The notes under the pieces are model-generated. The model ran no database searches. It worked only from the letters and a program-made list of their open reading frames with translations, and was not told where the DNA came from. Shown here piece after piece: positions 17,710 through 55,548 of a stretch of 55,548 nucleotides of DNA. The first letter of the stretch is position 1; each line of letters opens with the position of its first letter. The position numbers and the translations under genes are program-made. Source of the DNA: a virus; IMG/VR virus record IMGVR_UViG_3300029611_000007; one strand, written 5' to 3'.

Positions 17710-18438
17710 TCACTCACCAAAACGCACCGTGAAGCCGTCCAGAGGGTCACAGTGATGCTTTTGAAGCATAGCGTTGATCTTCTTGTCCTGTTCGGTGCGA
17801 TCCGGCGCGGTCACGGTGTAGGGGTGGCCGGGATCGTCCTCGTCATAGAAGGCGGTGCAGCCGTGCGGAACAGAGAATGTGCCACGGTTATAGGGGTCAA
17901 AGTAAATGTCAAAGTCGAATTTCCGACGCAGGTACTTGTCTAGCATGAAAGAGCTTTTGTCCAGATCGGTGCAGAGCCGATACCCGGCGGGATCGTCAAT
18001 CCACAAAAGCACGTTGCCGCCAACAAGAGCGCGGGCGGAATCCTCTGAAAGAGTGCCACTGTACACCTTGCCATTGAACAGGCTGGACAGGATGCCGAAC
18101 AGCTCTTTTTGTGCCGTGGCGGGAAGCTGCTCGATGCGGTCAACAGCAGTTTCAAAATCTACGCCGTCCAGCTTGTACTTGATTTTGCTGGGATCGTGGA
18201 TGAAATCACCGGGCATAAGATTAAGCTCCATTGCAAGGCGGTACTGGTGCTTGCAAGGCCGGGTGTGGCTACCGCAAACACAGCCGTTCGGCACGTCCAG
18301 CGTGACAACGTAGTTGCCGTGTCTGCTGCTGAAATAACCGGTCTGACCGTCAATGCAGGTCGGTGTCATGTCGGCTTTGAGGGCGGCAAGGTAGCTTTTG
18401 AGCAGCGGACCGTCCGAAACGGTGGGAATGTGGTTCAC
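17710..18438 (-). CDS. SWIM zinc-finger protein; the likely true start (ATG 18488 with SD) is out of frame because of a C10 tract
   Basis: 'GCVCGSHTRPCKHQYRL' gives the SWIM CxC..CxH pattern. The track start is a GTG without an SD. gaggtg-N5-ATG lies at 18499-18486, followed by the tract. Confidence 0.8.
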   Translation of the reverse strand: MNHIPTVSDGPLLKSYLAALKADMTPTCIDGQTGYFSSRHGNYVVTLDVPNGCVCGSHTRPCKHQYRLAMELNLMPGDFIHDPSKIKYKLDGVDFETAVDRIEQLPATAQKELFGILSSLFNGKVYSGTLSEDSARALVGGNVLLWIDDPAGYRLCTDLDKSSFMLDKYLRRKFDFDIYFDPYNRGTFSVPHGCTAFYDEDDPGHPYTVTAPDRTEQDKKINAMLQKHHCDPLDGFTVRFGE

Positions 18439-18462: not shown

Positions 18463-18472
18463 GGGGGGGGGG
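18463..18472 (+). repeat. Homopolymer G10 (C10 in the gene sense) in the 5' end of the SWIM gene
   Basis: tc-gggggggggg-taac read directly. C11 or C8 would give MCRNVTPPP(P)DENRVPEWVNHIPTV... Confidence 0.9.
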
Positions 18473-18592
18473 TAACATTACGACACATATTTTCACCTCG
18501 TTATGTTCTTTTTTGCGTGTGGCCGGGGCGTTCCCGGCTGGCGCAAAATCTCCACTTCAATGATAGCGCAAAACGCGAATAAAAGCAACAAA

Positions 18593-19379: not shown

Positions 19380-19397
19380 AAAAAGCCCCGGCGGGGA
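19380..19397 (-). terminator. Short GC hairpin plus T-run (minus strand)
   Basis: Minus sense: ccccgccggggcttttt. Confidence 0.45.
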
Positions 19398-19412
19398 ACC
19401 GGGAGCGGAGAT

Positions 19413-19892
19413 TCAGCGGGCCGGTCGCCGCTGAAAAGTAAAGCCGGGGTTACGTTCGGTCATTCGTGCAACAACCTTGTCCGCCTGATCTTTCGTGAAC
19501 CGGGGCGCAAAAACCTTGTTCATGCCGCGCCTACCGCCCCACGGGTCGCAGAGGGTGAAATGCTGATCTCCGGGGCCTTTGCAGTAAATGAAGTAGTAAA
19601 TCGTGCTGGCCGCGGGCATATCGGGGTATCTGCGGGGCGTGGAACGTGCGGCGACATCGACAGAGAACGCGGACAGCATCGCACACCCGAAAAGGTGGGT
19701 GCAGCAGTTCGCTTTGCGGTCGAAAATCGCGGCTCCGTCCAGATCGCGCCCGTCTGCCGCATACTCCTTGACCAGATAGGCAATTCGTGTACGGGCTTCG
19801 GCAATGGTGCGAAAACTCATATCTTCATCGGTGAAATCGGCGGAAGCGCAGGTGATAACTTGATACCGGTGGTTCGGATCGTATTCACGCAT
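19413..19892 (-). CDS. Hypothetical protein (159 aa)
   Basis: aaaaggaga RBS plus ATG in minus sense. Confidence 0.7.
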   Translation of the reverse strand: MREYDPNHRYQVITCASADFTDEDMSFRTIAEARTRIAYLVKEYAADGRDLDGAAIFDRKANCCTHLFGCAMLSAFSVDVAARSTPRRYPDMPAASTIYYFIYCKGPGDQHFTLCDPWGGRRGMNKVFAPRFTKDQADKVVARMTERNPGFTFQRRPAR

Positions 19893-19920
19893 GGTTTGTA
19901 TCTCCTTTTCGTTTCGTGGT

Positions 19921-19973
19921 AGCCTTGCGGCTGGGGCTGGGCTGCTTTACGGTGCAACCCGGCTAGAGTATCC
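19921..19973 (-). repeat. Intergenic structured repeat, copy 1 (variant 2)
   Basis: agccttgcggct + ggggctgggctgc-tttacggt-gcaacccggctagagtatcc. Confidence 0.75.
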
Positions 19974-19976
19974 ATT

Positions 19977-21599
19977 TTATGCGTTGAGCTGTAAAAGCGT
20001 GGCTTTCGTGGGGATCAGATGCCGTGCAAGGGTGTCCGTGTAACTCGCTTCGCCCTCGTAGCTGTCCACGATCTTCTGCTCTGCCTTGCTCATGTCGTGA
20101 TAGGATTTCTTGCCGTAGGACGGCGGCAACCATCCTTTCTTCTGGCTGGCGAACAGGTTGAACGACTTCAAAACGTCGTCATTCGTGAATGTGATGTGGC
20201 AAGTGCCTTTTTTGTAGAAAGTGGCGGTGAAGTAGCGGAACTGCACGTTCTGGCTTTGTCTGCTCTCCTCGGCGGCTTTGAGCGTTGCCCGGAGTTCGTC
20301 GCCGTTGTACTTCTTGCCGTTCGTGTCGAGATAGTGCAGGGTGCGCTCGATTCGTGACAGGCAGCTTTCCGCGTTCCAACTGGGTTCAAACCGCCCGGAG
20401 TAATCACCCCACGCCGAACACCGAAAGATCACTTTCTTGCCGACTTTGTACGCTTCGTTCGTACACCAGCCGTTGTAGTAGTGGACATTCTTCGAGTATT
20501 CGGAATTGTAGTGCAGATTCGTCCAGTCGTCGAACAGTTCCACGATCTCGCTTTCGATGCCCTGCACGATGTTGGCGGACATTTCTTCCCGGATCGTGAG
20601 GATGTTGTAAGGGCTGAAATCGTAGTCAACCAGTTCGGAAACGCGGTTGTGATATTCGTCCTGCATCGCTCTGGTTAAGTTGTCCCGGATTTGGGGCAGG
20701 TCAAAGAGCTTTTGCCAGTACAAGCCACGCAAGCTGCGGATCGCTTCGTTATAGCTCTTGCTGAAGTTCAGCACTTCGGTTTCCTTGTCGTCTGCGGTAG
20801 CAGCAGAAAACAGGCTCTTGATTCCGTTGTACTCTTCGTAGATGCGGCGGATGCCCTCGGCGGCTGCGTTGTACCGTTCCACCGCGGCGGCGATGGGATC
20901 AGCAGACACCAGCGCGGCAAGCTGCGGATCGGCTTTCATGTGGTCGGTCATTTCGTTGTTGAGTTCCAACCGGATTTTGCTTACTGGCTCCTTGTCGGGA
21001 ATGTCAACGGAGATCAACGCCACTTCAACGCGGGCGGCGCGGCGGGCGTTCTTGAAAGCGTCCGGGATGTATTTGATCTGGGCGTTGAGTTCGTTTAGCT
21101 TTTGCGCCAGCTCTTTCCGCTCGTTCGTGTAGGGATTGCGGATAGTTTCGGCGTTGAGCAGACAGCGGATTTTGCCGCCGTCTTTCATGATCTCTAAAGC
21201 CTTGAGCAAGTGAGCAGCACCGGCGGAAAAAGGCGGGTTCATGATGATCGCCGCGTATTTCTTCGCGGGGCGGAACGTGAGAAAATCGTCATGCACCACG
21301 CGGAAACCGTCTTTCTTCAGTTTGGCGCGGAAGTCGCTGGACAGTTCCACACAGTCAAGATCAAACTCTTTCGCCTTGCTCGTGCTGTAACGGTCAAGCT
21401 CTCCCGTTTTGGGATCGTGCCGAATATCTGCGACGGCGTGAATCTGGCGGGCCAGTGCGCCGTCACCGGCAGAGGGTTCAAGGATGGGCTGCGGCAGGTG
21501 CTTCCAGCCGTATTTTGTGCTTTGCAGGCTGTAAGCCATTTCCCACGCGAGATTGTCCGGGGTGGGGTAAAAGTCCCGGCTATCGTTCGGGGTCGTCAT
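19977..21599 (-). CDS. N6-adenine DNA methyltransferase with a large C-terminal domain
   Basis: ATG at 21599 after aaaaggaga. 'ILEPSAGDGALA' (motif I) and 'AIIMNPPFS' (NPPF motif IV). Confidence 0.85.
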   Translation of the reverse strand: MTTPNDSRDFYPTPDNLAWEMAYSLQSTKYGWKHLPQPILEPSAGDGALARQIHAVADIRHDPKTGELDRYSTSKAKEFDLDCVELSSDFRAKLKKDGFRVVHDDFLTFRPAKKYAAIIMNPPFSAGAAHLLKALEIMKDGGKIRCLLNAETIRNPYTNERKELAQKLNELNAQIKYIPDAFKNARRAARVEVALISVDIPDKEPVSKIRLELNNEMTDHMKADPQLAALVSADPIAAAVERYNAAAEGIRRIYEEYNGIKSLFSAATADDKETEVLNFSKSYNEAIRSLRGLYWQKLFDLPQIRDNLTRAMQDEYHNRVSELVDYDFSPYNILTIREEMSANIVQGIESEIVELFDDWTNLHYNSEYSKNVHYYNGWCTNEAYKVGKKVIFRCSAWGDYSGRFEPSWNAESCLSRIERTLHYLDTNGKKYNGDELRATLKAAEESRQSQNVQFRYFTATFYKKGTCHITFTNDDVLKSFNLFASQKKGWLPPSYGKKSYHDMSKAEQKIVDSYEGEASYTDTLARHLIPTKATLLQLNA

Positions 21600-21622
21600 G
21601 GTTCGTTCTCCTTTTCGTGTTG

Positions 21623-21686
21623 GATTCACCCCGGCGGGGTGTGGGATCGGGTCGCTTTTCGTTCGGTGCGGCCCGTCAAGGTATCC
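21623..21686 (-). repeat. Intergenic structured repeat, copy 2 (variant 1)
   Basis: gattcaccccggcggggtgtgggatcgggtcgcttttcgttcggtgcggcccgtcaaggtatcc. Confidence 0.8.
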
Positions 21687-21689
21687 GTT

Positions 21690-22214
21690 TCACTGCTGGG
21701 CTAAAATCGTGCTCAACCATGTGGAAGAGTCGGCGCAATCAACCATTTTCGCAAAGTAGCGGCCCGTTACAAGCTGGAACGCATATTGCGTGGTGTAAGT
21801 GCCGCTGTACATTTCCCGGCTGCAAAACTCTTCGATGTTGTTCCGGGTGTGCCAGTTGCGTGGCGGCAACACGTTCAGCGCGTTCTCATAGTCCTGTTTC
21901 GTGATCTCGACCATTTCCGGGGTGAGCAGCTTTTCCCGCTCAAAGTCCAGCCATTCGCCGTAGGTCATGACGGCATAAGAGCGGGCCTTTTCTTGCGCAA
22001 GGCGGCTTTCCCAATATCCCCGGTCGCTTTCGTAGTCGCCGGACTCGATGATCTGGGTGATCCGCTGGATGCTTTCGGCGGTGCTCTTCCGGGCGGCATT
22101 CAACACCTCTTCGGCGGTGCGGGGCGTGGGCCAGCCGGACACGGTGAAAGCGTAGATCTGGACGTTGGGAACATCCACAACAACAAGTTCGTTCTTCTCT
22201 TCGTTGGCGGTCAT
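21690..22214 (-). CDS. Hypothetical protein (174 aa)
   Basis: ATG at 22214 after aaaaggaga. The track ORF extension to 22343 runs through the repeat. Confidence 0.7.
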   Translation of the reverse strand: MTANEEKNELVVVDVPNVQIYAFTVSGWPTPRTAEEVLNAARKSTAESIQRITQIIESGDYESDRGYWESRLAQEKARSYAVMTYGEWLDFEREKLLTPEMVEITKQDYENALNVLPPRNWHTRNNIEEFCSREMYSGTYTTQYAFQLVTGRYFAKMVDCADSSTWLSTILAQQ

Positions 22215-22239
22215 GGTATAATCTCCTTTTCGTTTTCGT

Positions 22240-22302
22240 GATTCACCCCGGCGGGGTGTGGGGCTGGGCTGCTTTGTGCGGTGCAACCCGGCTAGAGTGT
22301 CC
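22240..22302 (-). repeat. Intergenic structured repeat, copy 3 (variant 2)
   Basis: gattcaccccggcggggtgtggggctgggctgctttgtgcggtgcaacccggctagagtgtcc. Confidence 0.8.
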
Positions 22303-22311
22303 GCGCTGGAA

Positions 22312-23430
22312 TCATGCCAGCACACCGGCGGCGATGCTTGCAAAGTCGAGCTGTTGGACGCTGGGAACCATTTCGGGGGCGTTGTGCTTGTGGTTGAGTT
22401 CGTCGAGAGCCATCACAAACGCGGCGGCTTCGCGGTCGCTGCTGATAAAGTCGCAACGGCAATTCGTGAATTGCTGGACAATGGCCGAAAATTCGGGGTC
22501 GTTCTTGCTCTTCTGGTCAAACGTCTTGACGGCTTCCCGGTATTCCTTGCTGTCGTTGTCGTCGTGGGTGCGGTAAAAGTTGGAATACCACTTTTCAAAA
22601 ACCGGCTCTAATTCTTCCATGCTCACGGTGACGGCGGGGGCTTCGTCTGCTGCTTTTTCGGCAGCTTTCCGGGTGGCGGTCGCCTTGCGCCATGCTTCCA
22701 GCGTGGCAGCTTGTCCGGCGCGGTCGGTTTCGGGAACGGCCATAAATTCGTGCATTGCCTTGCGTTCTGCCTTTTTGAGTTCGGCAACGTCGGCGGCGGG
22801 CTTCTTCGTGGTGCGGGGATTCTTCGGGGCCGGTTTCGTGGGAAGCGGTTCAACGTGAACCAGTTCGGGAAGTTCGTGGTGCTCTTCAACGACGACCGGC
22901 GCGGGGCGGGCAACTTCGGCGGCAGCTTTTGCGGCGGCTTCCTTTGCGGCCTTGCGTTCGGCGGCAAGCTGCTTGTTGTAAGCGATGATCTCCGCCGTGG
23001 ACTTGAACCGGGCTTGCGGGGCTGGCTTGCTGCTTTCAACCTGTAAGCAACTGAAAAGATGGGATTTCGTAGGGTAGTAATGCGGATCGGGTGCGGCTTC
23101 CTTGCCCTCTGCCGCGGCCTTTTCGCGCTGCTCTTTGCTGGGCTTCGTGGTGTACTTCCACAAGTAGCATTCAAGCAACGCTTTTTCGCCTTTCTTGACG
23201 CTCTTGCCCTCTTTCTTCCAGAAGTCGAACGTGTGCAGTTCGTCCGCTGCAAACATGATCTCAATGTCCGCGGCGGTGGCGGGCTTTTCGTTGCCGTCCT
23301 TGTCAACGATCTTGCAAGATGCAGCAACGGCGGCGATCTCTTCCGGGGTGTGGTGCGCGGTGGCGATCTGGTGAAGCGTGGCCGGGTCAAGACGTTCGGC
23401 GGCGGCGCGGATGATCTGTTTATTCGTCAT
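22312..23430 (-). CDS. ArdC-N-like (ssDNA-binding/antirestriction-type) domain protein with Ala/Lys/Pro-rich linker
   Basis: ATG at 23430. 'LHTFDFWKKEGKSVKKGEKALLECYLWKY' resembles the ArdC N-terminal domain. Confidence 0.6.
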   Translation of the reverse strand: MTNKQIIRAAAERLDPATLHQIATAHHTPEEIAAVAASCKIVDKDGNEKPATAADIEIMFAADELHTFDFWKKEGKSVKKGEKALLECYLWKYTTKPSKEQREKAAAEGKEAAPDPHYYPTKSHLFSCLQVESSKPAPQARFKSTAEIIAYNKQLAAERKAAKEAAAKAAAEVARPAPVVVEEHHELPELVHVEPLPTKPAPKNPRTTKKPAADVAELKKAERKAMHEFMAVPETDRAGQAATLEAWRKATATRKAAEKAADEAPAVTVSMEELEPVFEKWYSNFYRTHDDNDSKEYREAVKTFDQKSKNDPEFSAIVQQFTNCRCDFISSDREAAAFVMALDELNHKHNAPEMVPSVQQLDFASIAAGVLA

Positions 23431-23465
23431 GGTAAATACTTCCTTTCGTGTTTCGTTTTGCGGAT

Positions 23466-23533
23466 CGTCCCGGCGGTGTGCCGGGGGAATGGGATCGGGT
23501 CGCTTTCGTTCGGTGCGGCCCGTCAAGGTGTCC
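23466..23533 (-). repeat. Intergenic structured repeat, copy 4 (variant 1)
   Basis: cgtcccggcggtgtgccgggggaatgggatcgggtcgctttcgttcggtgcggcccgtcaaggtgtcc. Confidence 0.8.
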
Positions 23534-23541
23534 GGCGGGGT

Positions 23542-23883
23542 TCAATCTTCGGTTTCGTCGCAATCGTGGCAATACAGCGCGTCAATAACCTTGTCGTCGC
23601 TGAAATCGTCCGGGGTTCCGTTGGCATCGACCACAAGATCGATCCGGTCAAAAATCCGCAAATCGGTTTCACCGTCCACCAGAAAATACCAGTCGTCGCC
23701 GTCCAGCGCGTCACTGCACCAGACTTCAATCTGGTTTTCGTTGGTGGCGGTCATGCCTTTCACAATGGCCGGGGCGATATACCGCCCAAAAGGACCGACT
23801 TTGTAGGGACAGGCGGCAGCGGCGCGGGGTGCGCTGGACAGCAGCGCGGCGGCAAGTGCGGCGGCGGTCAAAATTCGTTTCAT
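23542..23883 (-). CDS. Secreted or lipoprotein-like small protein
   Basis: 'MKRILTAAALAAALLSSAPRAAAAC' is a signal peptide with Cys; acidic C-terminus. Confidence 0.7.
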   Translation of the reverse strand: MKRILTAAALAAALLSSAPRAAAACPYKVGPFGRYIAPAIVKGMTATNENQIEVWCSDALDGDDWYFLVDGETDLRIFDRIDLVVDANGTPDDFSDDKVIDALYCHDCDETED

Positions 23884-23928
23884 GGTTGTTTCTCCTTTTC
23901 GTTTCGTGGTGTGGCTTTTCGTGCTTTT

Positions 23929-23991
23929 CCCCGGCTATTGTCGGGGCGTGGGATCGGGTCGCTTTTCGTGGTGCGGCCCGTCAAGGTATCC
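23929..23991 (-). repeat. Intergenic structured repeat, copy 5 (variant 1)
   Basis: ccccggctattgtcggggcgtgggatcgggtcgcttttcgtggtgcggcccgtcaaggtatcc. Confidence 0.8.
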
Positions 23992-23996
23992 GGGGG

Positions 23997-24386
23997 TCAT
24001 GCGTAAATTTCATTGAACACTTCGACGGCGTTCCATTGCACCGCCTTTTCACGCTGGGCAGCTTTCGCGGCGTTCTGGTCGCCGCCGTTGGCTTTCAATG
24101 CCATATAGAAAGCATCAACAAGGGCGGCTTTTTGCCGTTCGCGTTCCCGATATGCGGCGATCTGTCTAGCGTCATACACCTTGACCGCCCACGATTCATA
24201 GTGAATCGGGGTCAATGTTTCATGGTGCAAGCCCTTGCAGCGGTTCAGAACGGCAACGATCTTTCCGGCATCCTCATAAGTTGGGGCGGCGATGATGTAG
24301 CAAGGGACAGCGGCGCGGGCTTGCTTCTCGATGTTCCACCGGTGACGGGTGGCGATCTGGTTTATTTTCTTGTCGAATGCGGTCAT
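23997..24386 (-). CDS. Hypothetical protein (129 aa)
   Basis: aaaaggaga RBS plus ATG in minus sense. Confidence 0.7.
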   Translation of the reverse strand: MTAFDKKINQIATRHRWNIEKQARAAVPCYIIAAPTYEDAGKIVAVLNRCKGLHHETLTPIHYESWAVKVYDARQIAAYRERERQKAALVDAFYMALKANGGDQNAAKAAQREKAVQWNAVEVFNEIYA

Positions 24387-24413
24387 GTTCTCGATCTCCT
24401 TTTGATTTTGATT

Positions 24414-24476
24414 TGCCCCGGCGGGGCGGTGGCATAGGGTTGCTTTTGCGGCAGCGGTGCAGCCCTTGAAAGTGTC
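24414..24476 (-). repeat. Intergenic structured repeat, copy 6 (variant 3)
   Basis: gccccggcggggcggtggcatagggttgcttttgcggcagcggtgcagcccttgaaagtgtcc. Confidence 0.7.
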
Positions 24477-24556
24477 CGCTTGACTTTACCGGCGAAAGCT
24501 GGTAAAATCATTGCAAGATCGGAACTCGAAAACCTATCTTGCAAGCCTGTCACCCT

Positions 24557-24655
24557 TTACCGGGTGGCGGGCTTTTTCTTTTGCCATTCGGCAAGAAGAG
24601 CGGCCCAAACTGCCCGCTTGACGGCTTTCGGCAGCTTGAAAAACTCTTTATTCAC
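24557..24655 (-). CDS. Very small basic protein (32 aa), not in the ORF track
   Basis: Minus sense: aagaggtgaaaagc-GTG NKEFFKLPKAVKRAVWAALLAEWQKKKPATR*. Bracketed by repeat copies 6 and 7, like the other genes. Confidence 0.35.
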   Translation of the reverse strand: MNKEFFKLPKAVKRAVWAALLAEWQKKKPATR

Positions 24656-24678
24656 GCTTTTCACCTCTTTTCTGGTTT

Positions 24679-24741
24679 GATTCACCCCGGCGGGGCGTTG
24701 GGATCGGGTCGCTTTCAGCGGTGCGGCCCGTCAAGGTGTCC
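24679..24741 (-). repeat. Intergenic structured repeat, copy 7 (variant 1)
   Basis: gattcaccccggcggggcgttgggatcgggtcgctttcagcggtgcggcccgtcaaggtgtcc. Confidence 0.8.
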
Positions 24742-24747
24742 GGCGGT

Positions 24748-24945
24748 TCATGCGGTGTAGTGGTTCGCGGCGGCGAAAATGTCCAGATCATCGGGGCTGT
24801 CAATCGCGCCCATCGGTTCGCCGTTGCGATAAACGACGTAATACGGGCCATAATCGGCGGCTTTCATGATCGACCCGTCGGGGGTCGTCCATGTTACGGC
24901 GTATTCGCCGGATTCAATCGCGGCGATTTTTTCAGAAAGTTTCAT
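24748..24945 (-). CDS. Hypothetical protein (65 aa), first gene of the leftward operon
   Basis: aaaagaggtcaaaccgc-ATG in minus sense. Confidence 0.65.
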   Translation of the reverse strand: MKLSEKIAAIESGEYAVTWTTPDGSIMKAADYGPYYVVYRNGEPMGAIDSPDDLDIFAAANHYTA

Positions 24946-24994: not shown

Positions 24995-25023
24995 ATCATA
25001 GCATGAATCATGCGATGTGTCAA
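24995..25023 (-). promoter_or_regulatory. Leftward sigma70-type promoter (TTGACA-17-TATGAT)
   Basis: Minus sense: ttgaca (25023-25018), 17-nt spacer, tatgat (25000-24995). About 50 nt upstream of the ATG at 24945. Confidence 0.65.
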
Positions 25024-25070
25024 GCATGAATCATGCTATTTTACGAAATGCACAAAAAAGCATGATTCAT
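25000..25070. promoter_or_regulatory. Three copies of the palindromic operator AGCATGA(A/T)TCATGC(T)
   Basis: 25000-25013, 25023-25037 and a partial copy at 25059-25070. The first two overlap the spacer and -35 of the leftward promoter. Confidence 0.65.
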
Positions 25071-25106
25071 TCCGTCAATTTTTGCATGGTGCATTCCGGG
25101 AAAATT

Positions 25107-25394: not shown

Positions 25395-25434
25395 AGAGGT
25401 AGACACGGCCCGCGCCGCGCCTACCTCTTTTTTG
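25395..25434 (+). terminator. Rho-independent terminator after the RHH gene
   Basis: agaggtag ... ctacctct stem followed by tttttt. Confidence 0.7.
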
Positions 25435-25440
25435 TTGCCT

Positions 25441-25482
25441 GTTTTCCGTGGGGCGTTTTCCGTGGGGCGTTTTCCGTGGGCG
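25441..25482. repeat. 14-bp tandem repeat x3 (gttttccgtggggc)
   Basis: Read directly; the third copy is slightly degenerate. Confidence 0.85.
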
Positions 25483-25487
25483 GCTCG

Positions 25488-26060
25488 ATGATGCCGCGCC
25501 GGTAGGAGATCGCACCCCGCCGCCGCTGAACGCTGGACAGGCCACGCCCCGCCGCCGCCCCGCGCCGGGCCGATGATGCCCCGCGCCGGTAGGAGATCGC
25601 CCGCCGCCGCGCCCTACATAGCTATATAGGAGAGGGCAGCAGCACCCCGCCCCGCTGGACAGATCGCCCCGGACAGGCCGCGCCGGTAGGAGATCGCACC
25701 CCGCCGCCGCCCCGCGCCGGGCCGATGATGCCCGCGCAGGTAGGAGATCGCCCGCCGCCGCGCCCTACATAGCTATATAGGACAGGGCAGCAGCACACCG
25801 GCAGAACCTCACACCAGCACCAGACAGCAGCACCGCCCGCCATACGCCCGCCGCCGCGCCCCGCCGCCCTACATAGCTATATAGGACAGGACCGCCCCGC
25901 GCCGGGCCGATGATGCCGCCGATCTGCACCCCGCGCCGGGCAGATGATGCCCGCGCCGGTAGGAGATCGCGCCCCGCCGCCCTACATAGCTATATAGGAG
26001 AGGGAAGCGGCACCCCGCCCCGCTGGACAGATCGCCCCGGACAGGCCGCGCCGGGCCGAT
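25488..26060. repeat. GC-rich complex repeat region without credible ORFs (interspersed motifs; two ~115-bp near-identical units)
   Basis: gatgatgcc(c)cgcgccggtaggagatcgc occurs 4 times (the 25488 copy reads gatgatgccgcgcc..). cctacatagctatatagg occurs 4 times (25613, 25764, 25868, 25981). gccgggccgatgatgcc occurs 4 times. Unit 25572-25690 is nearly identical to 25934-26058. Confidence 0.85.
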
Positions 26061-26089
26061 GATGCCCCGCCGCCGCGCCGGATCGAATT

Positions 26090-26563: not shown

Positions 26564-27352
26564 ATGCCGAAGCGGAACGACAAGCGCGACACCGCCAAGG
26601 CTGAGTACGTCAAGCGGCGGAGGTCGGGCGAGAAGATCAACCTCAAAGAGTTTGCGGCCACGCTGGGCGTGACCTACGGCACGGTTCGCAACTGGAAGAA
26701 GATCGACCGGTGGGAGGATGCCATAGAGCGCAAGCGCGGCGGGCAACCCGGCAACAAGAACAGCCGGGGCAAGAAGAACGCAAAGGGCAACACCGGTGGC
26801 GGTGCGCCGGACGGCAACACCAACGCCGAGAAAGACGGCGCATATAGCACCATCCACCTTGACCGGCTGACCGAAGAGGAACGGGCGTGGCTGGATGCGA
26901 TACCCACCGGGGCCAGCGCGAACAACGCCTATGAGTTGAAGCTGCTGCGGATTCAGCAACGGCACATCATGGAGAAGATCGCGGAGTACGAAAAGTGCAA
27001 CCCGGAAGAACTGTTCACAGCTACAATCACAGATATGCGCAAACCCGGCCCGGATGCCGAGGGCAAGACGGCGGACAGTGCCGTGCAGAAGATGGCGATG
27101 GTCAACAAAGACAGTGCCTTTGTCCGGGTGACGCAGTTGCGGGAAGCTCTGAACAAGGTTTCAGGCAGAATCATTTCCCTTACGACCCAGATTCGCCAGC
27201 AAGAAGAATTTGAAAAGCGGTACGCTCTGGAACTGGCCCGCCTTGACATTGCAAAGATGCGGGCGACCGGTGAGGTAGACGTAGACCCGGAGGGGGACGA
27301 AGAGGATGAAGAAGAAGCTCCACACGACAAAGATAGTGGCGCAGTATCTTGA
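26564..27352 (+). CDS. terS: Terminase small subunit (HTH plus Gly/Asn-rich repeat type)
   Basis: 'LKEFAATLGVTYGTVRNWKK' HTH. The 'GGQPGNKNSRGKKNAKGNTGGGAPDGNTNAEKDG' repeat is typical of P27/YqaS-type small terminases. Confidence 0.75.
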   Translation: MPKRNDKRDTAKAEYVKRRRSGEKINLKEFAATLGVTYGTVRNWKKIDRWEDAIERKRGGQPGNKNSRGKKNAKGNTGGGAPDGNTNAEKDGAYSTIHLDRLTEEERAWLDAIPTGASANNAYELKLLRIQQRHIMEKIAEYEKCNPEELFTATITDMRKPGPDAEGKTADSAVQKMAMVNKDSAFVRVTQLREALNKVSGRIISLTTQIRQQEEFEKRYALELARLDIAKMRATGEVDVDPEGDEEDEEEAPHDKDSGAVS

Positions 27353-39183: not shown

Positions 39184-39332
39184 AGGGCGGCTACAAAACA
39201 ATCAGAAAGGCGGCGATAGCTCTCGCCACAGTCACGCACACAAGCGCAGATTTTTACCTGAACTTGCCTGTGCGTGAGCTGGTGGAGATTCACGGGGAGG
39301 TTGCGGAGGAATGGCAAAAAATCAAGAACTAG
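39177..39332 (+). CDS. -1 frame extension of the tail chaperone (G/GT-type fusion product)
   Basis: Own translation: RLKGGYKTIRKAAIALATVTHTSADFYLNLPVRELVEIHGEVAEEWQKIKN*. Confidence 0.5.
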   Translation, partial: RLKGGYKTIRKAAIALATVTHTSADFYLNLPVRELVEIHGEVAEEWQKIKN

Positions 39333-42300
39333 AGCTTTCCATCCTGATCGGCGGTCACGTTGACAACTCACTTGCGCAGGCGGTGAAGTTGGCGAACACG
39401 CAGATCGGGAGCATTGCAAACGGCGCATCGAAGTTCGCGGAGAATATCGCCAAAGGTGCAGTAGCCGCCGCCGGTGGCATAGCCGCAGCCGTGGTCGATA
39501 CCACGAAAGAATCGGTTTCGTTTGAAAGCGAAATGCTGGATGTGACGAAGTACGTTAGCGGACTGACGGACGACAGCGGAAAAGTCATTCGTAGCAACTA
39601 CGAAGAAATGTCGAAAGACATTCTTGATTTGAGCACGGATATTCCGTATACCGCCGAAGAACTGACCCGTCTTGCGGCTGCTGCCGGTCAGTCTGGTAAG
39701 AGCATGGACGACCTGATAAGTGACGGCTTCCTGCGTGATGTTGCTGAAATGGGAACGGCTATGGACATTTCCGCAGATCAGGCGGGCGACTGGGCCGCAA
39801 AGTGGGAAGTGGCTTTCGACATAAACCACGATCAGGTTATGGAGCTGGCTGACCAGATCAACTATCTGGGGGCGCATTATGCGACGACCGCCGCAGAAAT
39901 CGCCCAGACGGTGAATGACACCGGTTCTCTCGGCCAGATCGCCGGTATGGACGTTGCAAGTACGGCGGCTCTGTCTACGGCACTTCTGGCAATGGGTGTT
40001 GACTCCGGTAAGGTTGCAACGTCTATTCGCCGGATGTACACAAACCTCTCGATGGGATCAAAGGCGACCGACGCACAGGCGGCGGCATTTGAACAGCTCG
40101 GCTTTACTGCGGAACAGTTTGCAAAGGATATGCAGACGGATGCACCGGCAGCAATAAAGAGCCTGTTCACGGCCATTGGAAGCCAGCCGAAAGACAAACA
40201 GGTTGGCTATCTGAAAACGCTGCTCGGCCAATGGGCCATTGAATCCGGTGCAAAGCTGACCGGAAACCTTGACCTGTTCATAAAGACGCTGGACGATGTG
40301 GGCGATGCTTCTAAATACAACGGCAGTATGTACAAGGAGTTCTTGCTGAAATGCGAAACCTCCGAATCTGTACTGACGATGTTGAGCAACGCATGGCGGG
40401 CTGTCCGCATCGAAGTCGGAAACAACTTCCTGCCTATTCTGAAAGACGTTGCCGGGTTCGGCATCGAGAAGATCAACGACTTCCGCGCAGCCCTGCCGGA
40501 TATAACGGCACGGGTAAAGGAAGTAATCGAATACCTGCTGAACAATGGCGACAAGGTAGCCGCCACGCTCGGCGGCATCGGCGCGGCGTGGGCCGGTATG
40601 CGGTTTGCGCCGCAGATTCTTCAAGTCGTCAGCGGGGTCACAAAGGGAGTGAGCGGGGCCGCTACCGGCGGCGGGAAGATTTTCAACGGCATCCGCACCA
40701 TCGCCAGCGGCATGAGCTACGGCGCACAGATGGCGGGCATCCAGTCCCCGTCTATTGGCCCGCAGCCGCAAAGCTCGTTCCTGAAAAATATTGCGACTAA
40801 GGCGAACGGTGCGGGTGTTGGCCTGTGGGCTACACTGAAAAACTTTACCGGCCTGACAAAGAACGATGGAAAAACAAAAATCGACTTTGTTCGAGACGTT
40901 ATGGGCGCATCGGAACGCGGGCAGACCATCCGGCAGAGCTTCCCTTATATCAACGGCGTTATGTCTGCTGCGTCTGACTTCGGAAAGACGAAAATCGCAT
41001 CCGGCATCGGTGGCGTTACCAAGCAGATTTTCACGGGAATCATCGGCCCGAACGGTATCGACGTGGCGAAACTTGCAGGAGGACTAAAAAACTTCGGTGG
41101 GGCTACGGCTGCTGTATTTGGAGCGATGCCCGGAAATGCTGCAAAAGCTGGCGTGAATTTCCTCTCAAAGATGAACTTTGCAAACGGTACTGGTTTGGGA
41201 AGAACCATCTACCGAATGGCAAACAGCACGCAGGGATTGAGCGGAAAGGCTGCTCTTGCGCAGATGGGGTACATCTTCAACCAGACGCGCCCCGGACAAG
41301 TGCTGTCTGGCGCAACCGGATTTGTTAAAAATGCAGCTCCGGCGGTGGCAGACTTCGGCGGCAAGGCGTTCGGGCTGGGCAAGGCCGTGGCATCGCCCGT
41401 CCTGAAAGGCGGCTTCAACATCTTCGCGGGCCTTATGTCCACATTCGGCCCGGTGATCGCCGGTCTTGGTTCTGTGATCGCGGTGGTCAGCCTGTTGGGA
41501 GATCACTTCGAGGACATTCGCCAGATCATCGGACAGGTGTTTGGCGAAAAGGGCTTGACGCTCTTTGACGGATTCACCGGGAAAGTGCAGGGCATCGCAG
41601 GGAACATCCACGATACCTTGGCTGGCGCGTTCTCGCTGGAAAACCTGCAAAACATCCAGCAGAGTTTGAGCGGGAAGAGCATCTTCGGCATCGACGATCT
41701 GGGAACTACGTTTGGCGCGGTGATCCCGATTATCGAGTCGGTAAAGGGTTTGATCGGGCAGATCGTAGACCTCGGCGTGAACCACATCAAGCCGCTGCTG
41801 GCGGACGTGCTGAGTTTCGCTGTGAACGAGCTGTTTCCGGCGGTGTCGCCGCTGATAAGCGCGATTATTAGTCTGGTCGGTACGACCCTGATAAACGCGA
41901 TCAAGTTGGTAGTCGATGTGATCCACGGCCTGCTGCCGGTGATAGAGCCTGTGATCCAGTCCATCGTTGGGCTGATAAAGGGCATCGTATCGGTGACGGT
42001 CACGGTCGTCAACGGCATCATTCGCGCCCTGAATAGCTTCTCGTTCACGGTTCCCCAGTGGCTTGAAAATGTCCCAGTGGCGAAGAACTTCGCCGGTAAG
42101 ACGTTCGGCTTTAACCTGTCGGAAGTGGCAATGCCCGCTTTCGCAAACGGCGGCTTTACCCGTGGAGTGAGCATCGCCGGTGAAGCTGGAACGGAAGCTG
42201 TCATTTCTTTCAAGCCCAGCGTCCATGACAGCAACGTGGAAAACTGGGTGCGGGCTGGCCGTATGCTGGGCGTGTCTGGTGAGGACGCGACCCGCGCAGC

Positions 42301-43363
42301 CGGTGTGCAGAACGTCCAGTATTTTGCGAACGGCGGCTTCACCGACGGAAGCAAGGAAAAGCTGGACAACTTGATCGACTTCTCCAAAGCCTACGACGAT
42401 TACGCTCTGCGCTCCAACGGCATCAAATCCACCGGTGATGTGGTGTCGATGATGTGGACGGTGGCGAACAACGCCATGTCCGGGGACGGCTCTTTGGAAC
42501 TGGTGGCGACCAGCATCGCCGCCGACGTTGCACCCATCATCCTGAACAAGTATCTGGGAAGCGACAGCACGGTAACAAAGGCCGTAACGGAAGCCGCCAA
42601 GACCTACAACGGCGGCACGGTGCTGTCGAGCTGGCAGGATGGTGTCTTGACCGACACTGGAACGCCGCTCTATATGCTGTCGCAGCAGGACGCGGCACAG
42701 CCGCCCGCCGCAGAAACGCCCGATGTTCCGGCTGAAACGCGCCAGACCGCGAAAGACTTTGCAGAGAACAGCGCAAGTGCAACGGGCAACGAGAAGCTGG
42801 ACAACTTGATCGACTTCTCCAAAGCCTATGCCGACTACGCCCTGCGCTCCAACGGCATCCGCACGGCGGGGGACGTTGCATCTATGCTGTGGACGGTAGC
42901 CAACAACTCGCTGGCCGGTGACGGCTCTCTGGCTCTGGCAGCTACCAGCATTGCCGCTGACGTTGCGCCGCTGGTACTGAACAAGTATTTTGGCGGGGAC
43001 AGCACGATAACCTCTATGCTGACCGAAGCGGCCAAGACCTACAACGGCGGCACGGTGCTGTCGAGCTGGGAAAACGGTGTTCTGACCGACACCGGAACAC
43101 CGCTCTATATGCTGTCGCAGAGGGACACCGAGAAAACCCTGCCGGATATGCCGTCCAGTGCCTACCGCGCCGCGGGCGGCGGTGACGGCGGAAGTTCCAG
43201 CAGCATCAAGGATTCCCAGTTTGTCTTTTCGCCGCACATCACTGTCGGCAGCGGGACAAACATGGAAGAGCTTGAACGTGAAATGCGGAAGCTGTTTGAA
43301 GAGTTCAAACAGGAAATGCGTGAAGAAGAGCGTGAACAGGGCCGTGTCAAATATGCTTCGTAA
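39311..43363 (+). CDS. Tail tape measure protein
   Basis: 1350 aa, Ala/Gly-rich and TM-like central region, after the chaperones. Confidence 0.9.
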   Translation: MAKNQELELSILIGGHVDNSLAQAVKLANTQIGSIANGASKFAENIAKGAVAAAGGIAAAVVDTTKESVSFESEMLDVTKYVSGLTDDSGKVIRSNYEEMSKDILDLSTDIPYTAEELTRLAAAAGQSGKSMDDLISDGFLRDVAEMGTAMDISADQAGDWAAKWEVAFDINHDQVMELADQINYLGAHYATTAAEIAQTVNDTGSLGQIAGMDVASTAALSTALLAMGVDSGKVATSIRRMYTNLSMGSKATDAQAAAFEQLGFTAEQFAKDMQTDAPAAIKSLFTAIGSQPKDKQVGYLKTLLGQWAIESGAKLTGNLDLFIKTLDDVGDASKYNGSMYKEFLLKCETSESVLTMLSNAWRAVRIEVGNNFLPILKDVAGFGIEKINDFRAALPDITARVKEVIEYLLNNGDKVAATLGGIGAAWAGMRFAPQILQVVSGVTKGVSGAATGGGKIFNGIRTIASGMSYGAQMAGIQSPSIGPQPQSSFLKNIATKANGAGVGLWATLKNFTGLTKNDGKTKIDFVRDVMGASERGQTIRQSFPYINGVMSAASDFGKTKIASGIGGVTKQIFTGIIGPNGIDVAKLAGGLKNFGGATAAVFGAMPGNAAKAGVNFLSKMNFANGTGLGRTIYRMANSTQGLSGKAALAQMGYIFNQTRPGQVLSGATGFVKNAAPAVADFGGKAFGLGKAVASPVLKGGFNIFAGLMSTFGPVIAGLGSVIAVVSLLGDHFEDIRQIIGQVFGEKGLTLFDGFTGKVQGIAGNIHDTLAGAFSLENLQNIQQSLSGKSIFGIDDLGTTFGAVIPIIESVKGLIGQIVDLGVNHIKPLLADVLSFAVNELFPAVSPLISAIISLVGTTLINAIKLVVDVIHGLLPVIEPVIQSIVGLIKGIVSVTVTVVNGIIRALNSFSFTVPQWLENVPVAKNFAGKTFGFNLSEVAMPAFANGGFTRGVSIAGEAGTEAVISFKPSVHDSNVENWVRAGRMLGVSGEDATRAAGVQNVQYFANGGFTDGSKEKLDNLIDFSKAYDDYALRSNGIKSTGDVVSMMWTVANNAMSGDGSLELVATSIAADVAPIILNKYLGSDSTVTKAVTEAAKTYNGGTVLSSWQDGVLTDTGTPLYMLSQQDAAQPPAAETPDVPAETRQTAKDFAENSASATGNEKLDNLIDFSKAYADYALRSNGIRTAGDVASMLWTVANNSLAGDGSLALAATSIAADVAPLVLNKYFGGDSTITSMLTEAAKTYNGGTVLSSWENGVLTDTGTPLYMLSQRDTEKTLPDMPSSAYRAAGGGDGGSSSSIKDSQFVFSPHITVGSGTNMEELEREMRKLFEEFKQEMREEEREQGRVKYAS
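42356..42690 (+). repeat. Tape-measure internal duplication, copy 1
   Basis: 'EKLDNLIDFSKAYDDYALRSNGIKSTGDV...GTPLYMLSQQD'; the partner copy is at 42791-43125. Confidence 0.85.
42791..43125 (+). repeat. Tape-measure internal duplication, copy 2
   Basis: 'EKLDNLIDFSKAYADYALRSNGIRTAGDV...GTPLYMLSQRD'. Confidence 0.85.
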
Positions 43364-49647: not shown

Positions 49648-50757
49648 ATGGCAACTAACTTTGATGCTACCCGCCTTGCGGTGCAGACTGCATTCCCCAC
49701 CAATGACCTGCTCTTTGACGACAAGGAAATGCCGTCCATCCATGTGTTTATCCCGAAGTTCCGCCTGTGCGATGTGCTGTCCACCCAGAGCACCGAAACC
49801 CACCCGGCGTTCATCGTGAACGGCAAGGAGATTGACGGCTTCTGGTTTGGCAAGTATCAGAGCACCTGCACCGACACTGGCCGCGCATACAGCCTGCCCG
49901 CAGAAGATCCCACCGTGTCCCATCCGCTTGACTGGTTCGTGACCCAGACCAACGCCAAGGGCGCGGGCTGGCACGAGATCAGCAATGCAGAGTGGGCGGC
50001 GGTCGCACTGTGGTGTCACAAGCACGGTTGTGAGCCGAAAGGCAATAACAACTATGGCAAGGACAGCTCCGAAACCTACTACGAAGCAATCCCTGTCCCC
50101 GGTGTGCAGGACAACGGCAAGACTGCCCGTGTCCGCACCGGCACTGGCCCGCTGCCGTGGAGCCACAACGGGCGCATGGACGGCATCTGGGACATGAACG
50201 GTAATATTTGGGAGTGGTGCATCGGTCTGCGTCTGGTCAAGGGCGAGTTGCAGATCATCCCCAACAACAACGCCGCCGACAACAGCGTGAGCAACAGTGC
50301 ATCCAGCAGCGCATGGCGGGCAATCAAGGCCAGTGACGGCTCTCTGGTTGCACCGGACGGCAACGGCACGACTACCGGAACCATCAAGCTGAACCGAGTA
50401 AACAATCACTGGGAGTGGGATACCACAATCAGCGATTCCAAGGACGAGAGCCGCAGCGCAGCGTTCAAGGACACCACGGCTGCGGCCAGTGTTGGCGATG
50501 CTGCAAAGCTGATCCTTATGTCCCTTGCTCTGATGCCGGACACCGCGCCGACCGGTGATGGCATTGATGCAAACTATGGCGGCGATTACTTCTGGGCGAA
50601 CAATGCCGCTGACGAGCGGTGTCCGATCCGCGGCGGCTACTGGGGCGGTGGCGAGGGTGCCGGTGTGTTCTACTTGAGCCTCAACCATCCGCGCTCTGGT
50701 TCGTGGGCGCTCAGCGGGGGCCGTTCCGCTTTTGTAAAGCTGCCCGCTGAAGCCTGA
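49648..50757 (+). CDS. DGR target protein 1 (FGE-sulfatase / C-type-lectin-fold receptor-binding candidate carrying VR1)
   Basis: 'GAGWHEISNAEWAAVALW', 'MNGNIWEWCIG' and C-terminal 'RGGYWGGGEGAGVFYLSLNHPRSGSWALSGGRSAF'. The 3' end matches the TR. Confidence 0.9.
   Translation: MATNFDATRLAVQTAFPTNDLLFDDKEMPSIHVFIPKFRLCDVLSTQSTETHPAFIVNGKEIDGFWFGKYQSTCTDTGRAYSLPAEDPTVSHPLDWFVTQTNAKGAGWHEISNAEWAAVALWCHKHGCEPKGNNNYGKDSSETYYEAIPVPGVQDNGKTARVRTGTGPLPWSHNGRMDGIWDMNGNIWEWCIGLRLVKGELQIIPNNNAADNSVSNSASSSAWRAIKASDGSLVAPDGNGTTTGTIKLNRVNNHWEWDTTISDSKDESRSAAFKDTTAAASVGDAAKLILMSLALMPDTAPTGDGIDANYGGDYFWANNAADERCPIRGGYWGGGEGAGVFYLSLNHPRSGSWALSGGRSAFVKLPAEA
50618..50731 (+). repeat. DGR variable repeat VR1
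   Basis: 114 nt aligned by hand to the TR. 15 differences, all at TR adenines. Confidence 0.9.
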
Positions 50758-50766
50758 TAAGCTGAC

Positions 50767-50786
50767 GGGCTGCGCGGTAGCGCAGA
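50767..50786 (+). promoter_or_regulatory. GC hairpin 3' of VR1 (candidate DGR target-recognition hairpin)
   Basis: ggctgcgc-ggta-gcgcagac, 35 nt after VR1. The partner lies at 1864-1883. Confidence 0.6.
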
Positions 50787-50808
50787 CCAAAGCAAAAATA
50801 GAACATAA

Positions 50809-51300: not shown

Positions 51301-51414
51301 GTGTCCGATCCGCGGCGGCAACTGGAACAATGGCGAGAGTGCCGGTGTGTTCAACTTGAACCTCAACAATCCGCGCTCTAATTCGTGGACGAACAACGGG
51401 GGCCGTTCCGCTTT
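51301..51414 (+). repeat. DGR template repeat (TR)
   Basis: Non-coding copy of VR1/VR2, rich in aac/aat triplets (24 adenines counted). Lies 185 nt upstream of the RT. Confidence 0.9.
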
Positions 51415-51599
51415 ACACCACAAGAACATTTTTGTTCGGCGGGATTCCACGCCGGATATGGGGGCTGTGATCTACGGGTCGCAGTCGGTGTGTGGGTCTA
51501 AAGGAATCCGTTTCCGTTCCGGTCAGCACGACCGGAAAAAATATGTATTGCCGCGAAAACGGAAACGCTACGCGCGGCGCGGTGGAATTGAGGGCGGAA

Positions 51600-55449: not shown

Positions 55450-55548
55450 GCTGAATAGTTAAAATAAACTCGAAAGAAATCGACACGGTTTCTTCCGGGT
55501 TTATTTTTTTGCGCATTTTTAGGAAACAAGGGGGATGAGAGAGCTTTG
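55450..55548. repeat. Terminal direct repeat, second copy of bases 1-99
   Basis: Identical 99-nt string at the start of the window. Confidence 0.95.

Follow-up and report, generated by a model that had tools for sequence, protein, structure and literature searches.

The seven intergenic repeats in the leftward operon of the virus record IMGVR_UViG_3300029611_000007 are copies of RAGATH-5 (Rfam RF02685), an already catalogued kind of RNA motif, and in related arrays the slot that they occupy holds either RAGATH-5 or, in its stead, an RNA of a proven self-cleaving class. The whole stretch of DNA analysed, hereafter the window, comprises 55,548 nucleotides (nt) and, judged from its sequence, is a Faecalibacterium phage (siphophage). 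By analogy with the ribozymes found in the equivalent slot, we lean towards the reading that the RAGATH-5 copies are intercistronic RNA processing or insulator modules that would act through cleavage.

Identity and position of the seven copies

A preliminary description of the window had reported seven same-orientation copies of a two-stem-loop element. A scan of the whole 55.5 kb window with Rfam assigned every one of these repeats to RF02685, with scores of 53.6–68.1 bits against a gathering score of 50 and expectation values (E) of 3.8e-9 to 4.7e-6, which is far beyond chance. The matches span model positions 1–53 and lie on the minus strand, the gene sense, in 7/7 copies. Since all of them are RF02685 matches above the gathering score, the element belongs to a kind already catalogued. 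Our own covariance model returned the same seven copies at E values of 5e-14 to 3e-9. Neither search found an eighth copy anywhere in the window, in agreement with the earlier statement that the element is absent elsewhere in it. The plus-strand starts given in that description are the left ends of the second hairpins to within a few bases. The copies are listed below with their core, second hairpin (hairpin 2) and Rfam score.

24683..24743 (-): copy A, gene 1/gene 2 gap; core 24743-24692, hairpin 2 24697-24683; 68.1 bits, E 3.8e-9
24415..24479 (-): copy B, gene 2/gene 3 gap; core 24479-24423, hairpin 2 24427-24415; 53.8 bits
23929..23993 (-): copy C, gene 3/gene 4 gap; core 23993-23942, hairpin 2 23946-23929; 61.0 bits
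23469..23535 (-): copy D, gene 4/gene 5 gap; core 23535-23483, hairpin 2 23485-23469; 66.8 bits
22244..22304 (-): copy E, gene 5/gene 6 gap; core 22304-22252, hairpin 2 22258-22244; 64.7 bits
21627..21688 (-): copy F, gene 6/gene 7 gap; core 21688-21635, hairpin 2 21641-21627; 64.3 bits
19921..19975 (-): copy G, gene 7/gene 8 gap; core 19975-19925, hairpin 2 19932-19921; 53.6 bits

The hallmarks of RAGATH-5, namely a hairpin with the loop ACCG...AAAG and the single-stranded flanks CGGAYAC and CCCA, are present in the alignments of the copies and in column counts over 143 relatives. The hairpin, the conserved loop and flanks and the phage-like gene context are shared with the family, and no family-level difference was seen. 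Twister, twister-sister, hammerhead, hepatitis delta virus (HDV)-like, pistol, hatchet, hairpin and glmS ribozymes gave no match in the window at the gathering score. A permissive Rfam scan of the operon (E up to 1) yielded no further ribozyme family and only one weak match, to a ctRNA on the opposite strand.

The operon is delimited on the minus strand by the following promoter and terminator.

24995..25023 (-): sigma-70-like promoter, TTGACA, 17 nt, TATGAT, with TG; 11/12 consensus matches; among operator-like palindromes
19386..19404 (-): intrinsic terminator, stem TCCCGG..CCGGGG then CTTTTTGTGT; directly 3' of gene 8

The unit running from 25023 to 19386 contains eight genes and seven gaps of 84–170 nt (n = 7), each with one copy. 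Because promoter and terminator bound a defined eight-gene unit, the earlier statement that there is one copy per intergenic gap is literally true (7/7). In a promoter scan of the operon, the operon promoter alone scored well, and one weak 9/12 match overlaps copy G. The genes are short-to-medium open reading frames (ORFs) at 19413..24945 (-), each preceded by an AAGGAG-type ribosome-binding site, and were annotated by Pfam and PHROG matches as follows.

24748-24945 (-): gene 1, ORF
24557-24655 (-): gene 2, small ORF
23997-24386 (-): gene 3, ORF
23542-23883 (-): gene 4, ORF
22312-23430 (-): gene 5, weak ArdC-N-like
21690-22214 (-): gene 6, ORF
19977-21599 (-): gene 7, N6-adenine DNA methyltransferase with DUF4942
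19413-19892 (-): gene 8, ORF

The distances from the upstream stop codon to copies A to G are 4, 77, 3, 6, 7, 1 and 1 nt. The description of the copies as lying a few nucleotides after the stop thus holds for six of them (1–7 nt) and fails for copy B, which lies 77 nt past the stop of the small ORF gene 2. In the seven window copies, the next start codon lies 32–58 nt 3' of the core.

Two further sites were noticed in this region. At about 25000-25075 (-), the -35 box and spacer of the operon promoter are overlapped or flanked by three near-palindromic boxes that resemble repressor operators, two of them reading GCATGATTCATGC and one GAATGAATCATGC. On the plus strand opposite gene 2, a promoter-like site (TTGACT, 17 nt, TAAAAT) at 24480-24508 is followed on its 3' side by a 13-bp terminator-like hairpin with a T-run at 24543-24574, and a sub-threshold Rfam match to ctRNA_p42d (23.8 bits, E 0.09) lies at 24540-24584. 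Together, these features suggest a candidate small antisense RNA inside the operon (24480-24584, +).

Covariation and the predicted fold

The main stem, S2, is the Rfam hairpin of RAGATH-5 and stem 1 of the preliminary description. Its helix is 9–10 base pairs (bp) long including mismatches. The single-copy folding energies of the seven window copies are unimpressive, with z-scores of only -0.7 to -2.3, and the support for the structure therefore comes from covariation. Pair 21-42 is CG in 76 and UA in 51 sequences, pair 15-47 is CG in 38 and GC in 35, and pair 13-49 is GC in 85 with additional CG and AU variants. The S2 covariation score was reached by 0/500 shuffles, and slid controls collapsed. 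The compensatory changes that had been reported for this stem within the window were upheld in part: one variable position (20-35) covaries in the Watson-Crick sense, while at the other the sense strand has C.A in five copies and U.G in the remaining two. Reading of the plus strand explains why this second position had been noted as a T-G wobble. Over distinct rows of the sense strand, position 19-43 is C.A in 85, C-G in 24 and U.G in 23, and in the family alignment A2, C.A or A.C oppositions dominate at positions 19/43 and 15/47. Since U-A never occurs at 19/43 while C-G and U.G do, these columns suggest selection for a wobble-like or protonated A+.C geometry.

The 5' CGG is invariant and pairable with the invariant loop CCG, which would give a 3-bp stem, S1. 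Its sole variable pair, C2-G28, is C-G in 104, G-C in three, U-A in two and U.G in two unique sequences, with four mismatches; the G-C and U-A cases make five unique compensatory sequences. These counts support a predicted pseudoknot between the 5' CGG and the loop CCG. In copy A, the 5' strand of S1 is at 24742-24740 and the 3' strand at 24721-24719. The first pseudoknot pair is C.A in copy C, the loop of which reads CCA in place of CCG, and U.G in copy G, where 5' UGG replaces CGG.

The top two mutual-information pairs of the whole element lie outside the hairpin pairs and are x9-R35 and x10-R36, where x9 and x10 are the two pyrimidines after GGAYAC and R35 and R36 the two purines of the S2 3' arm (24735/24734 and 24710/24709 in copy A). 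The combinations are CG 76, UA 57 and UG 1 for x9-R35 and UA 85, CG 46 and UG 1 for x10-R36. Taken together, the two pairs are complementary in 99.3% of cases with 103 double changes, and slid controls were far lower. The same rule holds in 52–53 of 53 unique copies from bacterial genomes, an independent set. When near-identical sequences differ at R36, x10 differs too in 13/16 pairs. Of the four states, three occur among the window copies, namely CT/GA (copies A, C, D and F), TC/AG (copies E and G) and TT/AA (copy B). The register of these contacts is parallel, which makes a Watson-Crick helix impossible and matches the pyrimidine-motif rule for major-groove triples (C+·G-C and U·A-U). An antiparallel register, x10-43 and x11-42, is also always pairable and to that extent speaks against this interpretation; it shows no double changes and leaves x9 unexplained. 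Two major-groove base triples are the best reading of the 5'-tract contact, with a putative geometry taken from covariation.

Directly 3' of the invariant CCA is hairpin 2, which was found in 142/185 unique tails versus 35 after shuffling. As described earlier, it is retained in all copies, in shape: the stems and loops are highly diverse, with examples such as CACCCC-GCC-GGGGTG, CCCGGC-AGCC-GCCGGG, GCCC-AAAA-GGGC and AGCC-GCAA-GGCT. In the window, copy D carries CCCGGC-ACACC-GCCGGG, copy G carries AGCC-GCAA-GGCT and copy C has an 8-nt loop. The CCA (ending at 24699 in copy A, and part of a GCCA tail in copy B) occupies columns 50–53 as N-CCA, with one variable base between the stem and CCA. 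Column counts over the relatives show GGA, ACC, AAAG and CCA to be invariant in 142–143 of 143 copies. A closing helix in which the 5' flank would pair with bases 3' of CCA gave no covariation signal.

The element had been described as two stem-loops. A structured, sense-oriented RNA is borne out, and its predicted fold exceeds two hairpins by the pseudoknot and the tertiary contact. The Rfam structure line has one hairpin, so that the pseudoknot, the 5'-tract contact and the accessory hairpin all lie beyond it, and the tertiary covariation may be new as judged against that line alone. In topology, the predicted fold of RAGATH-5 matches H-type pseudoknots with major-groove triples, such as the beet western yellows virus (BWYV) luteovirus frameshift element, the SAM-II riboswitch and telomerase RNA. 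Common to both would be the pairing of a 5' strand with a hairpin loop, a loop 1 running along stem 2 and an A-rich loop 3, and in both the bases of loop 1 would follow the purine strand by one rule, C opposite G and U opposite A. They differ in function and position, as RAGATH-5 does not sequester the ribosome-binding site and has no in-frame slippery site at copy C, the copy inspected, and its geometry comes from covariation only.

Related arrays and ribozymes in the same slot

The copy-bearing region is 95% identical to Faecalibacterium phage Lelie and, in part, 84% identical to FP_Toutatis, both of which are named GenBank phages with a named Faecalibacterium host. The gene set of the window is that of a normal phage and includes a replication initiator, a transcriptional activator and terminases. 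The Lelie array has seven copies by our own model and seven by the Rfam gathering score. For the Toutatis array, the numbers are seven and six, and the copy absent from the Rfam list is the own-model match at L002 5000-5049. A pattern scan of viral contigs gave at least 118 stretches, and the covariance model for the wider scan was built from 20 copies. The motif, for which the preliminary description had proposed to look in related phages, is present in at least 120 viral loci, and our own covariance model counts at least 281 RAGATH-5 copies in these loci and the window.

The position of the copies relative to genes is strict. In each of the at least 120 viral loci, all copies share one strand. 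Of 250 copies, 239 are placed between -60 and +15 nt relative to where a same-sense ORF of at least 40 codons ends, compared with 46% of random positions, and 235 have a ribosome-binding site with its start codon and ORF behind them within the next 160 nt. The spacer between the stop codon and the first paired base (C2) is variable, mostly 6–11 nt with a peak at 6–9 nt. In bacterial genomes, model-confirmed copies are restricted to Oscillospirales (Faecalibacterium, Oscillibacter, Gemmiger, Acutalibacter, Allofournierella and unnamed Oscillospiraceae or Clostridiales), where they form same-strand arrays. Pattern matches in Streptomyces, Klebsiella and other genera, many of them in high-GC phyla, were rejected by the covariance model and are due to chance. 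The possibility raised earlier that the element is a host repetitive extragenic palindrome (REP) or miniature inverted-repeat transposable element (MITE) dispersed through chromosomes is ruled out, because the model-confirmed bacterial copies are confined to these same-strand Oscillospirales arrays and orientation and position are fixed in at least 120 viral loci.

Rfam scans of 15 related loci revealed four twister-sister ribozymes (RF02681) and one type II hammerhead ribozyme (RF02276) inside RAGATH-5 arrays and on the same strand.

L025, 1664-1746 (-): twister-sister
L075, 5370-5451 (+): twister-sister
L020, 6909-6988 (-): twister-sister
L003, 4333-4416 (-) and 4606-4673 (-): twister-sister and type II hammerhead, flanking one 54-aa gene

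These ribozymes start at or just after a stop codon (0–3 nt for twister-sister) and are followed by an A/C-rich spacer and a ribosome-binding site, as is RAGATH-5. The genes behind them are homologues of genes behind RAGATH-5 copies. Window gene 6, which follows copy E, and the L025 gene behind a twister-sister share 52% identity (E 1e-66), and a Toutatis gene after a RAGATH-5 copy shows 50–55% identity to the L075 and L020 genes behind twister-sisters. The slot is therefore filled interchangeably, and the genes adjoining RAGATH-5 are ones that elsewhere neighbour twister-sister or type II hammerhead RNAs. The two kinds of RNA are alike in slot, strand, arrangement in arrays and homologous downstream genes, and differ in that twister-sister and type II hammerhead have no sequence or model similarity to RAGATH-5 and that self-cleavage is proven for those classes alone. 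An RNA processing site had been among the roles first proposed for the element, and the presence of proven ribozyme classes in the equivalent slot before homologous genes lends it indirect support.

Tandem hammerheads in prophages flank ardA and other variable genes, in arrays around anti-restriction-type genes, and cleave, and it was proposed that long phage transcripts are thereby processed into gene-length mRNAs (Perreault et al., 2011, PMC3088659). The content of the window operon, with its weak ArdC-N-like protein, N6-adenine methyltransferase with DUF4942 and small proteins, is of the same flavour as these hammerhead-flanked prophage genes. Most of the cassette proteins of the operon and the related loci have no Pfam match.

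The copies also coincide with joints between phage genomes. Homology to Lelie breaks off in the stretch from the promoter to copy A, where gene 1 is replaced, and is back exactly at copy A. The comparison with Toutatis shows one additional unit of element plus gene, inserted exactly at copy D (the breakpoint is the 5' edge of copy D), and homology stops at copy E, beyond which there are other genes with copies still between them. Across loci, one downstream gene family is found behind up to seven different upstream families. The earlier idea of cassettes that shuffle genes is thus indirectly favoured by the Lelie and Toutatis breakpoints. A parallel exists in T4-type phages, whose promoter-early stem-loop (PeSL) cassettes, like RAGATH-5, are conserved elements of small size between genes, delimit small accessory genes and coincide with mosaic joints. 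They differ in carrying an early promoter, whereas the RAGATH-5 copies have none and the operon has a single upstream promoter. The likeness to a promoter-stem-loop cassette suggested before is thus not sustained. The 5' TTGAC has no -10 box behind it and is absent in copies E and G, and a promoter reading of it was rejected.

Proposed function and alternatives

In the processing mechanism that we favour, the seven copies would be transcribed within one polycistronic early or accessory-gene messenger RNA (mRNA). The sense RNA of each copy would fold into a compact H-type pseudoknot of S2 and the 3-bp S1, with the 5' pyrimidine tract lying along the S2 3' arm and contacting its two purines as C+·G-C and U·A triples. 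After the pseudoknot would come the A-rich loop strand, the invariant CCA and the variable GC-rich hairpin, and then an A/C-rich spacer leading to the next gene's ribosome-binding site. The long transcript would be cut at or beside each copy, through self-cleavage or by a nuclease of host or phage origin that recognizes the fold, and every cistron would end up on an mRNA of its own that has a structured end and carries a ribosome-binding site. Twister-sister and hammerhead RNAs in the equivalent slot of other phages would do the same job. As a side effect, the conserved module of 60–100 nt could serve as a homologous joint for the exchange of gene cassettes between phages. The T7 RNase III sites offer a parallel, since they are also structured, repeated between early phage cistrons and presumed to yield discrete mRNAs. 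They are long irregular duplexes cut by host RNase III, and the copies were previously compared with them. That comparison fails at the level of structure: RAGATH-5 is conserved, forms a predicted pseudoknot and has a stem of just 9–10 bp with mismatches, as opposed to the approximately two helical turns expected of an RNase III site.

A more specific form of this proposal is speculative. RAGATH-5 might be either a new self-cleaving class that needs the accessory hairpin, low pH or a cofactor, or a transfer RNA (tRNA)-acceptor mimic cut by RNase P; in both cases a pseudoknot-triplex of ~50 nt would be interchangeable with twister-sister and hammerhead in cutting early operon mRNAs. A need for low pH would be explained by the C+·G-C triples and the A+.C wobble. 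The type label of RF02685 in Rfam is 'ribozyme'. The name RAGATH-5 did not turn up in the literature searched, which did not include the original description, and the main text of a 2017 follow-up is without RAGATH.

Several points weigh against processing by cleavage. RAGATH-5 is reportedly a candidate without demonstrated self-cleavage. The invariant bases would be equally compatible with a protein-binding site or with recent common descent in a narrow host range. In addition, the sense-strand stem contains 140 C.A or A.C cells versus 26 G.U, and with G.U allowed the stem pairs to 92% on the antisense strand versus 83% on the sense strand. An inference of the strand from G.U and C.A counts is confounded by the C/A-rich composition of the sense strand, and the antisense signal in these counts is contradicted by the context rules and the third-strand rule.

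Among the alternatives, a non-cleaving RNA stability element is rather unlikely. The fold would block 5'-to-3' (RNase J1-type) or 3'-to-5' exonucleases and would confer differential stability on cistrons after cuts elsewhere, like exonuclease-resistant RNAs (xrRNAs) or 5' stabiliser hairpins. A compact fold with many tertiary contacts and a 5' end enclosed by the pseudoknot, the stable variable hairpin directly 3' of the core and the presence of one copy before every cistron are all in keeping with such an element. It leaves unexplained the substitution by self-cleaving ribozymes in the equivalent slot, and simple blockers seldom need ~30 invariant bases.

It is improbable that the copies are the recognition site of a trans-acting protein, such as a RegB-like phage or host endoribonuclease or a translational regulator that would switch off or modulate all early cistrons jointly. 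The invariance of GGA, ACC, AAAG and CCA in unpaired parts and the placement of one copy before each ribosome-binding site would suit a protein ligand. A candidate RNA-binding protein was not found alongside the copies in the operon, whose cassette genes are variable and mostly unannotated, and the tertiary covariation suggests self-sufficient RNA folding. Should the protein be a nuclease, this explanation would merge with the processing reading.

Very little weight is given to the RNase P substrate as an explanation in its own right. In this case, a tRNA-acceptor-like mimic, with S2 and S1 stacked to ~12–13 layers and an N-CCA end, would serve as a substrate for host RNase P, with cleavage at the 5' stem base, as in the pseudoknotted tRNA-like structure of turnip yellow mosaic virus (TYMV) or the intercistronic RNase P sites of E. 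coli. The invariant CCA 3' of the stem after one variable base and the stacking of a 3-bp helix on a 9–10-bp helix by the pseudoknot are reminiscent of an acceptor, and a trans-acting ribozyme would suit the lack of any reported self-cleavage. Against this, ARAGORN found no tRNA-like or transfer-messenger RNA (tmRNA)-like gene, the element lacks an evident T-loop motif, the presumptive 5' leader is tied up in the tertiary contact, and hairpin 2 starts right at the A of CCA in many copies.

The least probable is a DNA-level or antisense function, in which the copies would be recombination linkers only, or plus-strand hairpins in antisense late transcripts or single-stranded DNA. The mosaic breakpoints at the copies and the better pairing of the stem on the antisense strand when G.U or G.T is allowed point that way. 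The strict sense orientation and the position relative to stop codons and ribosome-binding sites in at least 120 loci, the interchange with ribozymes active only in sense RNA, and a third-strand rule that follows the purine of the sense 3' arm and not its partner point the other way, and the G.U asymmetry is subject to the compositional bias mentioned above.

Other candidates were rejected outright. Antitermination or attenuation, another of the roles first suggested, and a terminator function do not agree with the absence of a U-tract after either hairpin (hairpin 2 is followed by AAUC or A/C-rich sequence), and a consensus scan found no terminator-like site on the minus strand between 19700 and 24990. 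For a frameshift or readthrough stimulator, there is no in-frame slippery heptamer before the stop at copy C, the one copy inspected, and at copy A an in-frame stop lies inside the element; the spacer length varies, and twister-sister occupies the equivalent slot 0–3 nt after the stop. Hairpin 2 is too variable in sequence between copies to mimic a CRISPR (clustered regularly interspaced short palindromic repeats) repeat.

Elsewhere in the window, an exact 99-nt direct repeat is present at 1-99 and 55450-55548, which indicates a circular assembly overlap and hence a complete genome of ~55.4 kb. Dense direct repeats of 14-nt, 25-nt, 52-nt and 85-nt families fill 25428-26070, between the operon promoter and the small terminase gene (26564-27352), and could be a candidate packaging or origin-type region. 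Ten consecutive C at 18463-18472 (-), closely preceded by an ATG at 18486 and lying upstream of the ORF 17710-18216, may represent a tract for slippage or frameshifting, or else an error of sequencing. A repeat of 123–190 nt with about 80% identity occurs at three sites (1712-1902, 50622-50806 and 51304-51426), and a tandem duplication of ~340 nt (42351-42691 / 42786-43126) lies inside a 1350-aa ORF (39311-43363).

The RAGATH-5 copies bear on the question of why phages put self-cleaving ribozymes and look-alike motifs between accessory genes. With one promoter, eight genes, seven copies, one terminator and named close phage relatives, the locus is a clean test bed for this question. The covariation-based fold, the replacement by twister-sister and the coincidence with mosaic joints turn a catalogue entry into specific experiments. 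If cleavage is true, the module would be a compact natural insulator part for synthetic operons.

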